The notes: generated from the sequence alone by a model not told the origin. DNA of 64,000 nucleotides from Eledone cirrhosa (GCA_964016885.1 OZ024743.1:202430001-202494000), one strand, 5' to 3'; shown: positions 13,291-60,702, numbered from the stretch's first letter. Numbers and translations: made by a program.

Positions 13291-13466
13291 AAAACAAAGG
13301 AATTGTGGTAAGGAACCAGATGGACCATAACTCACGAGAGTACTCAATGCTTAGGGTAGTAGAGTGGGAAATAGGAAAAAGTATGACCGTTTCGACGGCT
13401 ATTTCTGTCCAGAAATAGCCGTCGAAACGGCTTGAGCTCTGCCGTCGTGGTCATACTTTTTCCTAT
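13291..13466 (-). mobile_element. PLE pseudo-LTR 3' fragment folded into a hairpin (family A)
   Basis: Homologous to 28376, 33383, 34537 and 60509. Palindrome centred at ~13408 and flanked by (TA)n. Confidence 0.8.
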
Positions 13467-13504
13467 ATATATATATATATATATATTATATATAGTATAT
13501 CGAG

Positions 13505-13575
13505 TTTCAGAAAATCCCGTTAAGGGTGAAAGCAGCGATTCTTTGCTTAAAATTTAATCTCTTATTTTAATAAAT
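13505..13575 (+). ncRNA. Hammerhead-like motif with a CAGA core, between (TA)n tracts
   Basis: TTT-CAGAAAA-TCCC..GGGT-GAAAGCA...TGCTT-AAA; second copy at 52947. Confidence 0.5.
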
Positions 13576-13641
13576 ATATATATATATATAAAATATTAAA
13601 CAAATAATGAATAAACAATTCCTTATATTAAACAAAAAAAG

Positions 13642-13796
13642 TTCATTATTTAACGATCGTTTCTAGGGTATATATGTGTTATAATTGGTATGCATATTCA
13701 ACAGATCTATGTACAAAATTATACAAAATTATACAAATTATCAAGATTAAATATACATACCTAACACATATATACGCCGTCTTCAGAAATAATGAA
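13642..13796 (-). ncRNA. Type I hammerhead ribozyme (mirror copy in the left arm)
   Basis: Reverse complement of 20335-20489. Confidence 0.8.
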
Positions 13797-16700
13797 GTAT
13801 ATTTATTGATAATAACAACAATTCAAAATTTCAGTTCAAAATTGACCAATGAAAACACAAAGGGTTAAAAGCAGTTCGGTGTGTGTATATACATGTAAAA
13901 TCCTTACACATATTTTACAAAAATGTATGTATAACTTGTATACGCATACTAAAAAGATGGATGCAAACACAAAATTTCAAGGTTAATATCTCTGTAAGCT
14001 TAAAATGCGCTGATAAGATGCGCATTGATACTTATGGAGTCAAGCACATAAATATATTTTTTCATACTCACACATATCAGTACAATCACACATACACGCG
14101 CGTATATGCATAAATATACACATAACCACGAACATGCAAACACACACACACCCCCACTCACATTTATATATGTGGATATAAAATCATAAGCACATGGATA
14201 TTAAATCACTCACATAAAACACTGGCACACACATTTCAAGATCAAGATACAGAAATTAGGTGGGAGGGGGGGGAGGGGTCAGTATTCAATTGTCTGAGCA
14301 GACTGCCTAATATAAATGTATCTATAAATTAAGAAAAATAAAAAAATAAAACAATAAAATATAATAAATATAATATAATATACATACACATACAGATATA
14401 TACACATACATACATGTACGCGCACATAGAAATATTTACGCATACACACATACACACATACATATACAGTCATACACACACATACACTTACACGAACATA
14501 CACATACACATATATAAAGATATATATATACACACACACACACACGCAACACATACACACATACACATATATATAAAAAAAATAAATAATAAAGATATAT
14601 ATCCATATATATATACACACACATATATATATATATATATATATATATATATACACATATACATACACATACATCTAAATATACATACACATACATACAC
14701 ACATACATGTACATACATGTACATACATATACGCACATCGATATACATATATATATATATATATATATATATATATATACACACACATAGACATATAGAT
14801 ACATACACACACAACTTACATACACACATATATATATATAGATGTACATTCATACATAGAATTAGATATATAATCATACATACATATGCACCTACTTATA
14901 CTCATATATATAAATACATACGCTTCCATATATGCGTATATACATAAAAAACACTACAACCTCACCTAACTCAGACATACAAATAAAAATAATAATAAAA
15001 AGGCATATGTATATAGATACACACACGCATTAATCGAGATATATATATATATACACACATACATACACATATATATATATACATATATATACACATACAT
15101 ATATATATATATATATATATATACACACACATACACTCATACATATATATATATATATATATATAAACATATATATCCCCACACACTCATACCACCATAA
15201 ATACACATACAAACACCCACATATATATATATATATATATATATACACACACGTACACATATATATATATATATATATATATACACACACATAAAAAACA
15301 GACATGCACATATATATATATATATATATTTTTTTACACTCATATATACACATATTATATATACATACACAACCTCACTTATACACATATACACATAAGT
15401 TATATTATAATAATAAAGAATAATATACATATATATATATATACATATACATATATATATATATATATATATACATACATACATACACATACATACATAC
15501 ACATAAACATATACATACATAAATACACACATACGAATAAAGACATATATTCACACATAGACACCTATATATATATATATATATATCTATATATACATAT
15601 ACATATATATATATACATATATACACATATACATATACATACACACACACACACACACACAGACACATATACACACTCACATATATACATGTGTATATGT
15701 GTGTGTGCGCACATACACATATATACACACTCACATACAAACACACATAAAACACATACATATGCATACGTGCACAGACACACATATATATCACATAGAT
15801 ACGAAGATAAACATATAAATAGAGAGACATACATATATATACCACACACATACACATACATACATACACACGCATATACATATACACATATATATATACA
15901 TATATATATTCCTATATATACAAGCATACACATACATACACATATATACACATACATACACATATACATACAACACATTCACATACACATACATATATAA
16001 TGCATATATATACATATATATACATACATATGTACACTCATATATACACACGCAATCTTACATTCATATTTGCATGCGCATATATGTATTTTTATATTTA
16101 GATATAAATACCCAAACCTATATAGACACCTACCTACATATATATTCATACATAGACGCTTACAAATATAGATGATAATAGTATGGGGGAAAGGGGGGGT
16201 TTGGAGAAGGGGATCAAAGTAAATATATGTTTCAAGAAACATATAATATTTTCCGTATCTTTATTCAATGTATGTTCTTACATATTTTCAGTGCTAGGAA
16301 ATACGACAAACAAGAACTAAGGCAAAATCTATGCATCTCAAAATAAATAAGTATACCATTAATCATATGTTAACTAAACCAAAGATAGTCAACATATTGA
16401 TTTCTAAGGTGTAAATTAGTTAGGTTTATAATATTTGAAGCAGAATTTTGAAGTCAAACAGTAGTAGATTATTAATTACAGTATAACTAAATTAAAGTTA
16501 ATAACGTTATGGTATCAATATTAGGAAATGAATTTAGTAATAGGGAAAAGAAACCCAAATAAAAATAAAATAAAGTATTACATCGGTAGTAGCATATAAA
16601 TTATATGTTAACTAAATTAAAAATTATATATTTATTTCAATAGTATATGTTAATTAGTATATGTTAATTAGGTATACAATACATAAAGCAGATATTGTAT

Positions 16701-58366: not shown

Positions 58367-58589
58367 TATATATATATATGTATTTATATTTGTATACTTG
58401 ACCGTTGGTCAGTCAATGATAAATATTGAGGACCAAATGAATTAACTGTGGAGATATAAAAGATACAGAAGCGAAAACCAACCTAACAATGAGTGTGTTC
58501 TGTTGCTATTTCTGGTAATATTATTACAACAATATGACCCTCCCCACGTATAACAATATATATATATATATATATATATATATATGTAG

Positions 58590-59453
58590 GAACGTGAGTT
58601 TTATTGTAGTACAATAAAGCAATCCATCTCTATTAATAATAATATTCCTAAATTATTCTTAAGTGCCTTAAATAAATGCTTCCCTCCCTCACATATCTAT
58701 AGTAAAATATTTAACACACACACTATAAAATTTTCCTATTCGACCTCCTCCAACATTTCCAACATTATCTCTAAAAACAACAATAAAATACTAAATACTA
58801 AATCTCTTCCTTCCAACACTGAATATCATAATAATAGTAATAGTACTCCCGACGTCATTGTAAACTCTAGGCTAATTTCTGCAAACCCAAATACAACGTC
58901 AAACACAACTTCGCTAAATCAAGAAACTATTATTCCTATCGTAAATAACTTCTCCAATCCAATTCCTTCTATAGATAACACTAAGTCACTCGTTAATAAC
59001 TCTGCTAATCTCTCTAATTGCAATTGCAATTACCCTGTTAAAAATAAATGTCCTCTCAACAACCATTGTCTTGAAAAAAACTTAATCTACGAATGTAAAG
59101 TTATAACAGACACCAATTCCTTCACCTATTTTGGCTCCACTTCCACCTCCTTTAAAGCTCGTCTTTATAATCATCATTCGTCTTTTAAATACCAACTTAA
59201 AAGAACCAACACGCCACTCTCAGAACTCATATGGTCCTTGAAAGACAAACATATTAAATATAACATCTCTTGGAAAAAGGTTTCTTCTGCTTCTCCATAC
59301 TTGAACAGTTCTCTATCCAAGACTTGCAATCTCTGTTTAAATGAAAAATTTACCATTATATCTAATTTCGATTCTATAATAAATAGACGCACTGACTTGT
59401 TTTCTCTCTGCTTGCATAAATTCCACAGAACATTCCATAAAGTATACAGCTAA
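58590..59453 (+). CDS. Naiad-type PLE C-terminal region (thumb/linker plus GIY-YIG); open frame, largely missed by the ORF track
   Basis: Manual translation: NIPKLFLSALNKCFPPSHIYSKIFNTHTIKFSYS...CNCNYPVKNKCPLNNHCLEKNLIY...YFGSTSTSFKARLYNHHSSF...LSELIWSLK...CNLCLNEK...INRRTDLFSLCLH. Confidence 0.85.
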   Translation, partial: EREFYCSTIKQSISINNNIPKLFLSALNKCFPPSHIYSKIFNTHTIKFSYSTSSNISNIISKNNNKILNTKSLPSNTEYHNNSNSTPDVIVNSRLISANPNTTSNTTSLNQETIIPIVNNFSNPIPSIDNTKSLVNNSANLSNCNCNYPVKNKCPLNNHCLEKNLIYECKVITDTNSFTYFGSTSTSFKARLYNHHSSFKYQLKRTNTPLSELIWSLKDKHIKYNISWKKVSSASPYLNSSLSKTCNLCLNEKFTIISNFDSIINRRTDLFSLCLHKFHRTFHKVYS

Positions 59454-60360
59454 TATCTAATACTTTATCAATTTAAAATCCTTTTCTCAAAGGCACATAT
59501 TTATATATACCTCTTTAAAAATATACCCATCTTTCTACCTTATTTCAAAGTTATTTATTATACATTATATAATACTAGTTACTCATTCTATATCACTCCT
59601 ATTTATCACTTCCCTTTCTTCCTTTTCCTTTTCTTTTCCTTTTTCTTTTAATTTCTAACCCCTAATCTGTACCTTTTCTCATTGTGCCTAACATAGAAAC
59701 AATTATTACACAGTACAATATATTCTTACTTTATATCACCTTGAAAAAATCATTCGTAACATAAACATTTTTTTGACGTTAGATTATTCATCCTCAATTC
59801 ATTATTTTTTCTCCCTTTCATGCTCATCTAACTTATTCATCCTATCTTCTACTTCTTTCACAATATATCCTTACTTACATTACTATTGCTTTTTTTCATA
59901 ATACGTATCAACATTTTCTTTCCATCGCACATATTATTAAACCCTTAAATATTATTCTTAATACATATTAACAATTTCTTTTCATCGCACATATTATTAA
60001 ACCCTTCAATATACAAACCTTAACTTAACATTATTTTTCTCTTCGTTAATTTTCAAATTCTTTTAATTTATATATTATCTTCCTACGGTTTTTCAACTTC
60101 TCTATGTAAAACAATATATTTTTCTCAGTTATAAAAGCTATCTCTCTCTCTCTATCACCCATCTCTCCTCCTATCTCATCCTTCCTCATTATTTTCCTCC
60201 CCCTCGACTTTTTACTCTCATCTACTCCTCTTTTTCATCCCCCGCCCCTCAAAAAATCTTTTTTTTCCAATATCACACATCAATCTAAAACTACTTTTCA
60301 TATGTTGATTTAAAACTGCACTATTCACAAGTGTTTTTTAACCTTCATATCATGTCTTCC

Positions 60361-60431
60361 TATTTTATCTGATGAAAACACAAATGTTATTGCATGATGA
60401 TATTTGTTTTTGAAATGCGCATAATAAAATA
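60361..60431 (+). ncRNA. Type I hammerhead ribozyme
   Basis: TATTTTAT-CTGATGA-AAACACAAATGTTAT...ATGATATTTGTTTTT-GAAA-TGCGCAT-A-ATAAAATA. Confidence 0.85.
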
Positions 60432-60508
60432 CATGGAACTCTTTTAACCATCTTTTGATCTTATATGTTATATATATATATATATATATATATATATATA
60501 TATCTATA

Positions 60509-60702
60509 TAGGAACCAGTAAGACCCCGACAGCTGAGCTCAAGCCGTTTCGACGGCTAATTCTGGACTCGAATTAGCCGTCAAAACGGCTTGAGCTCAGC
60601 TGTCGGGGTCTTACTGGTTCCTATTACCCACTCTACTACCTCAAGTATTGAGTACTTTGGTGCGTTATGGTCCACCTGGTTCCTTACCACATTTCCTTCG
60701 TT
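60509..60702 (+). mobile_element. Family A pseudo-LTR hairpin copy
   Basis: Palindrome 60509-60623 plus a tail ending TTCCTTCGTT(AT)n. Confidence 0.85.

Follow-up and report, generated by a model that had tools for sequence, protein, structure and literature searches.

The pseudo-long terminal repeats (pLTRs) of endonuclease-positive (EN+) Penelope-like elements are described, in the sections of PMC8557442 and PMC3846280 cited here, with a head-to-head inverted copy at the 5′ end, 5′ truncation, a tail on one side only, (TA)n targets and short palindromes or overlaps at the junction. The origin of these inverted repeats and tails is stated to be unresolved (PMC8557442, in the part cited), and two leads compete: self-priming (PMC3846280) and two start sites (PMC11167929). 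In PAc, a Poseidon element of Anolis carolinensis, reverse transcription starts at two sites with the tail between them, the target is cut and extended on both strands, and RNA that has not been cleaved serves as the main substrate in vitro (PMC11167929, cited section). Here we analyze Family A, a repeat in 64,000 nucleotides of Eledone cirrhosa DNA (GCA_964016885.1 OZ024743.1:202430001-202494000; hereafter the window). Family A shares all of the pLTR features listed above. It is unlike the EN+ elements of the cited sections in having no open reading frame (ORF) attached and, in most copies, a shared truncation point that halves a hammerhead ribozyme motif, and its tail is 78 nucleotides long versus 30-40 in those elements (PMC8557442). 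An earlier note on this DNA had singled out the hairpins and their turn in ribozyme stem II, without naming the one-sided tail or the Penelope-like inverted-repeat signature. As set out below, most Family A copies stop at a narrow boundary 12 to 19 nucleotides upstream of the hammerhead GAAA, and we tentatively relate this boundary to the 5′ end of the RNA template.

BLAST of four named copies against the window identified five copies of Family A, four of which (c13, c28, c33 and c60) are head-to-head hairpins. Offsets and reaches are given in nucleotides from the G of the hammerhead GAAA, which is position 28497 in c28. The arms are as follows:

13293 to 13407, minus strand: tail-bearing arm of c13, with its 78-nucleotide tail ending in (TA)n; reach -14
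13407 to 13466, plus strand: inverted arm of c13, with a 1-nucleotide overlap with the tail arm and its inner-site end beside (TA)n; reach -17
28377 to 28728, minus strand: tail-bearing arm of c28, with a complete hammerhead-like motif
28377 to 28454, minus strand: 78-nucleotide tail of c28, between the inner end (28456/28455) and the outer end
28733 to 29002, plus strand: inverted arm of c28, 270 nucleotides
33382 to 33441, minus strand: inverted arm of c33; reach -17
33442 to 33577, plus strand: tail-bearing arm of c33; reach -15
34538 to 34677, plus strand: c34, a single tail-bearing arm of a diverged subfamily, with no inverted arm
60508 to 60568, minus strand: inverted arm of c60; reach -18
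60570 to 60702, plus strand: tail-bearing arm of c60; reach -12

In all four hairpins the 78-nucleotide tail is on one arm only, the inverted arm stops at one fixed inner site, the outer end is intact, and (TA)n adjoins both ends; (TA)n also adjoins the tail end of c34. Short hairpins of about 190 bases are abundant in the family. The three in the window (13293-13466, 33382-33577 and 60508-60702) turn upstream of the GAAA and lack the CUGA half of the ribozyme, as the earlier note had reported. Their arms reach -12 to -18, none of the six extends beyond -18, and the inverted arm extends further upstream than the tail arm in 3/3. Their centers measure 30, 32 and 31 nucleotides (c13, c33 and c60) and no two are alike; at the c60 join one extra base, a C at 60569, lies between the inverted and tail arms. 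The copy at 34537, previously taken for a loose hairpin, proved to be a single arm (16-19 differences in 55 columns relative to the full arms) whose 5′ side holds only an imperfect palindrome of about 10 bp. The claim that all copies turn at the same place overlooked the fifth copy, c28 (28377-29002), which turns near 28730, about 230 nucleotides upstream of the GAAA. Its 270-nucleotide arms differ at 25 of 264 columns and both retain the CUGA half and the core.

Only c28, one of the five copies, holds a complete ribozyme-like motif. It has the topology of a type I hammerhead, and its parts are:

28554 to 28560, minus strand: hammerhead 5′ core CTGAGAA, with C3 and A8 in both c28 arms
28498 to 28553, minus strand: stem II, nine perfect pairs plus a closing region, with a 33-nucleotide loop that holds a weak inner stem
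28470 to 28497, minus strand: GAAA, stem III (9-nucleotide loop with a palindrome), cleavage triplet at 28477-28475 and the 3′ strand of stem I

The predicted fold contains stems I-III, though it does not beat shuffled sequences (z -1.36; as good in 18 of 200 shuffles). No hammerhead was matched in Rfam (0/37 rows in one search, none among 150 listed of 264 rows in another), and a strict hammerhead scan missed Family A, whose stem II has a mismatch near the base. The microRNA-type matches in Rfam were dismissed as hairpin artefacts with scores under their thresholds. The main stem II helix occupies -1 to -11, and the turn sits just above it, at the 3′ edge of the 33-nucleotide loop and the weak inner stem. 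The turn is thus near the place proposed earlier, stem II, and outside its main helix. The cleavage triplet is spanned by seven of the eight hairpin arms, one of which is mutated to GTA; the earlier claim that cDNA ran through the GUC site is not confirmed for the c13 tail arm, which lacks 20 nucleotides covering stem III and the triplet.

Among the closest described systems are the type I hammerheads of pLTRs, which comprise a core variant with U3-A8 and pairs on opposite strands separated by 100-700 bp (PMC4209133, in the part cited). Like Family A, they have a long stem II, a loop III palindrome and, in part, U3-A8. Family A differs in its stable stem III, by which it is not a minimal hammerhead, and in its 33-nucleotide loop II; its complete window copy is C3-A8, and most copies hold the 3′ half only (PMC4209133). 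The architecture is also that of PAc in its two fixed ends bounding a tail just downstream of the hammerhead, its AT-rich targets and the retention of the cleavage site in insertions; the PAc start sites were shown in vitro, whereas those of Family A are deduced from genomic ends, and the cited section on PAc deals with neither inverted arms nor a truncation hotspot (PMC11167929). Retrozymes lacking long terminal repeats (non-LTR retrozymes) likewise are non-coding, carry a type I hammerhead and are kin to Penelope-like repeats, but they are arranged head to tail with a whole ribozyme per unit, whereas Family A is head to head with half ribozymes (10.64898/2026.07.22.740005, cited section): none of the five Family A copies is tandem and one of five has the whole motif.

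We examined the turn position across the family in public sequence data. Four of nine runs (X1, X3, X4 and X7) were mapped on the c28 tail arm, with X2, X5, X6, X8 and X9 left out. X1 and X3 are contig sets of one sample (organism A), X4 is from organism B, and X7 is a restriction-site-associated DNA (RAD) run. The statements on joints concern the 15 listed; another 10 joints and 671 loose ends lie beyond these. The data define one feature:

28509 to 28519, minus strand: turn and 5′-truncation hotspot, -12 to -22, commonest end at 28515 (-18)

In organism A the hotspot is real. Depth falls 13.1- and 13.7-fold (X1 and X3) from the bin 28497-28508 to the bin 28521-28532, and 9.4- and 9.8-fold from 28506 to 28520. 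Most copies stop at -12 to -19, most often at -18. Strand changes were found in 12 of the 15 joints, and 9 of these 12 end at 28509-28516 (-12 to -19); counted by contig, the hotspot holds 24/24 (X1) and 19/21 (X3) of the listed strand-change joints. Position 28515 is both the commonest joint end and the commonest hotspot loose end among the rows listed. Loose ends at 28515-28519 come from 78+28+30 contigs in X1 and 87+28 in X3, and because their flanks agree poorly (0.37-0.48), many boundary ends lack one common upstream sequence. Junctions of the inner end with (TA)n were counted in 161 and 183 contigs and in 3568 reads, and GAAA depth is 1.8 times tail depth, as expected if many copies are two-armed. 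In four of the 12 strand-change joints listed, one end is in the hotspot and the other at 28411-28455; read most simply, these have a tail arm that does not overlap the inverted arm and is too short to have templated it. The junction 28512/28513 was seen in 5 and 3 contigs, and all such counts are biased, as contigs break at perfect palindromes and cross only imperfect centers. A 22-fold drop in X7 was set aside because its end piles (28519, 28592 and 28612) lie at AATT words, one of them made by a common allele at 28520, and so resemble enzyme cuts. At the ribozyme core, U3 accounts for 49% of mapped depth at 28560, and with A8 it would give the published U3-A8 pair. Related copies in organism B (X4, 28527-28579; 17 contigs) run through the hotspot and carry U3 and TATTTAAA in the stem II strand.

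The hotspot contains an initiator-like motif with its A at 28515, and upstream of it lies a second candidate promoter element:

28539 to 28546, minus strand: TATA-like box (putative promoter), first T 31 nucleotides upstream of 28515, overlapping the 5′ strand of stem II

YYANWYY is the initiator pattern. We searched with relaxed patterns, this one and TATWWAW (our own relaxation), leaving at least one mismatch against the Drosophila consensus. Within the 350-nucleotide arm there is a single TATA-like/initiator-like pair; it sets +1 at 28515 and occurs in both c28 arms. Such a pair fell in the hotspot in 0.18% of 5000 whole-arm and 0.24% of 5000 local 63-nucleotide dinucleotide shuffles. Canonical spacing puts the TATA T at -31 or -30 relative to the initiator +1 (PMC4803293, in the part cited); in two diverged loop-II variants, identified by eye among loose ends, the initiator-like A is 30 nucleotides from the TATA T, and one of them reads TCAGT. 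Transcription starts within pLTRs are known (PMC8557442, cited section). In L1, the cap leaves an extra base at full-length 5′ ends (PMC11702581, cited section), and a copied 5′ cap would leave a trace such as the extra C of c60.

If each hairpin formed at its own insertion, its two arms should resemble each other. Pairing the eight window arms by locus ranks first of 105 pairings, narrowly (0.236 versus 0.239 for the next). Over 55 columns, the two arms of a locus differ by 5.9% on average; between loci the mean is 12.8% for arms on the same side and 12.2% for arms on opposite sides. Among the informative columns, seven show mirroring by locus, a single one crosses loci, and a split of left from right arms is seen in none. 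Differences between the arms of one locus are uneven (0/35, 1/55, 5/55 and 7/55). We preferred the pairing test because an eight-arm tree is weakly supported outside c60 (94 for the c60 pair, 42-55 elsewhere). The three mirrored arm strings quoted in the earlier note are all present, and its expectation that arms pair by locus rather than as left versus right was borne out by a thin margin. Its description of the variants as private to each copy did not survive: mirrored alleles at 28506 (48% of depth) and 28481 (31%), both in c60, and at 28462 (28%), in c13 and c33, are common across the family and are therefore subfamily markers. The remaining mirrored alleles are not among the 40 of 264 rows listed in the allele table. 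From these sequences we read the mirroring as both arms deriving from one source element, a pattern that does not by itself show the mode of formation.

An internal control is provided by a second family in the window:

27245 to 28310: partial tandem plus a tail-less inverted arm, with a tail of about 33-40 nucleotides

Here the inverted arm reaches 170 nucleotides beyond the adjacent direct copy, the two join at a 3-nucleotide microhomology, and they share five alleles in 114 columns. The locus shares a (TA)n run with c28. Its partial tandem of direct pLTRs is an arrangement not found among the five Family A copies. A CTGATGA box is present, and no full hammerhead could be fitted by eye.

The reading we favor, and hold at a little under an even chance, is that at each insertion two target-primed cDNAs are made and joined at the 5′ end of a template RNA that starts at -18. 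The fixed outer ends abut (TA)n and lie 78 nucleotides apart on the element. By analogy with the anole element, both nicked target strands would act as primers, giving one cDNA from the outer start site and another from the inner. The -18 boundary would be the element's own transcription start, with the TATA-like box and initiator-like motif inside the hammerhead, and both cDNAs would reach the RNA 5′ end and run off it, having copied about 60 and 135 nucleotides. They would then be end-joined with the loss of a few bases, leaving the tail cDNA level with or short of the other. The arms would share subfamily alleles because both cDNAs copied the RNA of one source element. An RNA starting at -18 would lack the CUGA half and therefore could not self-cleave, which would explain the intact GUC; with such a template, neither re-ligation nor escape from cleavage need be invoked. 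The earlier proposal of uncleaved or re-ligated templates is thus unneeded if the RNA starts past the CUGA half, and use of uncleaved RNA is not new, given the anole element. Rare long copies such as c28 may have had read-through or downstream-repeat RNAs as templates. The arm reaches, the non-overlapping joints and the second family all fit two cDNAs that were primed separately and then joined centrally, and later deletions could mimic single cases. A Penelope-like enzyme is likely to make these stubs at each insertion, and the RNA start is the likelier reason for the stop than a stall at the ribozyme. L1 twin priming offers a parallel, with two opposite-strand cDNAs, a mid-join and short microhomology; L1 inversions have no duplication and variable second priming, whereas Family A has fixed start sites and overlapping arms (PMC11702581 and 10.1101/2024.12.14.628481, cited sections). 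We regard as possible, but more doubtful, the wider proposal that the element carries a core promoter inside its own hammerhead, such that transcripts starting in loop II, with half a ribozyme, would be uncleavable, read-through RNA would fold the whole ribozyme, the enzyme would begin copying at two sites close to the mRNA 5′ end and run off the cap, leaving very many near-identical stubs, and the hairpin centers would record both the start and the two-cDNA mechanism.

Alternatively, a longer RNA could carry a block atop stem II, structural or by protein, at which both cDNAs halt before being end-joined; this keeps the stall of the earlier note and drops its snap-back. In the predicted fold the hotspot does coincide in part with the inner stem's 3′ strand (28512-28518), depth persists upstream at a lower level (238,000 to 83,000 in X1), and arm asymmetry, mixed flanks and mirrored alleles are explained equally well as by the RNA-start reading. 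The enzyme would, however, have had to get through stem I, stem III and the GC-rich helix of stem II, which is stronger, only to halt in an AU-rich stem, the promoter-like spacing would go unexplained, and the full ribozyme on the template would have to stay uncleaved; we judge a stall unlikely, though it is the likeliest of the rivals. Snap-back, in which one cDNA primes itself near stem II and cutting or joining at the inner site ends the second arm, lies near the published ideas of self-priming (PMC3846280) and endonuclease resolution (PMC8557442), as given in the cited sections. It would account for mirrored alleles and for near-symmetric centers, that of c28 outside the hotspot included, and at -22/-23 a cDNA could fold back weakly over 4-5 bp. 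Against this, the center bases belong to the inverted arm in 3/3 short copies, so the tail cDNA cannot have given the loop, and the c13 inverted arm holds 20 nucleotides absent from the tail arm (a later deletion is possible). No cDNA end at -12 to -19 self-primes better than +1.3 kcal/mol, and the strong predicted sites (-53, -7 and +3) are not among the 15 joints listed. The apparently non-overlapping joints and the second family at 27245-28310 also speak against snap-back, which we consider improbable. Snap-back through the full stem II (-53, -4.9 kcal/mol) was rejected, as it predicts a 33-nucleotide loop that is not seen. The earlier suggestion that stem II acts as a stall or snap-back site therefore fares poorly on three counts: the turn lies past the strongest helix, self-priming is weak and the inverted arm is the longer in 3/3.

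One or more hairpin masters could also have spread as a non-autonomous unit resembling a miniature inverted-repeat transposable element, with the junction inherited. The junction 28509/28515 recurs in 16 and 15 contigs (X1 and X3) and 28512/28513 in the few already given, so that the recurrence of junctions, which the earlier note had named as a sign of such propagation, was in part observed. One short form makes up most of the family, and the arm alleles are subfamily alleles. Yet all four window junctions differ, no left- or right-specific allele exists among the eight arms, all four inverted arms keep their outer end intact, and c28 combines these outer ends with a different turn. Joins could repeat without descent given a fixed template end and a 4-5-bp inverted micro-repeat (-22/-23), and the junction counts carry the bias toward imperfect centers noted above. 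We think propagation unlikely, somewhat less so than snap-back and more so than a stall. Given the four junctions, the locus pairing and the absence of left/right alleles, formation at each insertion, as the earlier note had proposed, is the likelier course. Very unlikely, in our view, is a post-insertion origin, with alleles and centers produced by arm-to-arm conversion and the trimming of longer palindromes. Long palindromes are generally unstable, and the uneven arm identity would suit such a process, but the mirrored alleles match family-wide ones and need no conversion, a direct-repeat deletion at stem II would leave a 33-nucleotide loop whereas the centers hold few unpaired bases, and ends with mixed flanks use the same boundary.

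Several points weigh against the RNA-start reading. The recurrent 28509/28515 junction is one, and organism B is another, with a drop of only 1.3-fold in 17 contigs. In organism A the fall is exaggerated, as depth upstream is understated where the c28 reference has diverged, and summed contig depth is not copy number; the joint output, moreover, does not name which arm is which. The shuffle probability of about 0.002 is post hoc, the patterns having been picked after seeing the sequence; an initiator-like motif on its own lands in the hotspot in 16-18% of shuffles, and pairing in stem II places a further constraint on the TATA-like box. A cap-like extra base is clear in only one of the three short copies, and the Penelope promoter of D. 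virilis is TATA-less and internal. Finally, no element encoding reverse transcriptase (RT) or endonuclease was tied to Family A, either by an ORF in the five copies or by collection scans, so that its membership among Penelope-like elements is assigned by architecture.

Pattern scans for family loci gave 0 in metagenomes, viral contigs and prokaryote genomes; three metagenome matches over only 21-27 nucleotides were attributed to chance. A 54-codon antisense frame in c28 is not supported as coding, with low scores only (best 0.82). In four of the five copies an ATG in the tail opens 12 codons (MVHLVPYH.SFV) with several third-position changes:

28390 to 28377, 33540 to 33577, 60665 to 60702 and 13293 to 13330: tail ATG frame

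In other Penelope elements the pLTR plus tail carry the first ORF codons (PMC3846280), and by analogy the tail ATG could be the start of a parent ORF.

The window holds other retroelements. Just left of c13 is a different Penelope-like family (11386-12995). Its 5′-truncated 421-codon ORF (11386-12651, plus strand) has the RT motif YVDD and a GIY-YIG-like end, and look-alikes of the ORF (Atlas, 0.94-0.97) carry HTH_animal, GIY-YIG and RVT_1; a Pfam scan found nothing in two retroelement-like window ORFs, this one included. After the ORF, 12930-12995 holds a minimal hammerhead (CTGAAGA, 6-bp stem II, GAAA; about 12943-12985) and ends in (TA)n. A large nested inverted repeat (13641-20490; 98-100% over 446, 495 and 1612 nucleotides) begins 175 nucleotides right of c13 and is a recent fold-back duplication or an assembly artefact. 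A third hairpin-forming family lies at 20794-21501 (262-nucleotide arms, 91%), with a related copy (60298-60476) directly left of c60. At 23660-24270 (minus strand), two head-to-tail units of about 320 nucleotides, 96% alike over 255 nucleotides, stand between (TA)n runs; each has a type I hammerhead of the U3-A8 kind with a AGAGCTCT loop III like that of Family A, and the pair is retrozyme-like. A 287-codon frame at 58590-59453 (plus strand), beside (TA)n, has an asparagine-rich stretch, which recalls the N-rich inserts of Penelope ORFs (PMC3846280), followed by a Cys-rich motif and a GIY-YIG-like segment. An LTR-retrotransposon-like element (53041-58367) has 476-nucleotide direct repeats, 97% alike; between them, on the minus strand, lie broken frames of RT, RNase H and integrase-like type. 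There is also a dispersed family of about 190 nucleotides, with seven copies 78-89% alike:

4048 to 4225, 8248 to 8463, 10406 to 10625, 24937 to 25130, 29199 to 29393, 47940 to 48130 and 52237 to 52433: dispersed family of about 190 nucleotides

Earlier publications already cover the architecture, the idea of self-priming and the use of uncleaved RNA. Our analysis adds a sharp boundary cutting the ribozyme in half, an asymmetry of the arms that speaks against snap-back, and a candidate promoter in the ribozyme. The literature searched, which was thin on subscription papers and on Repbase/Dfam, gave no description of a Penelope hammerhead with a truncation hotspot or a transcription start inside it. 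Family A, present five times in 64 kb and bounded by two fixed outer ends and a sharp inner limit, offers a large natural sample, and three models of formation differ on which arm is longer at the center. If the boundary is not a transcription start, these hairpins would be ordinary Penelope-type debris with a truncation hotspot. If it is a transcription start within the ribozyme, it would explain how a self-cleaving motif can be kept by the element without loss of its template.

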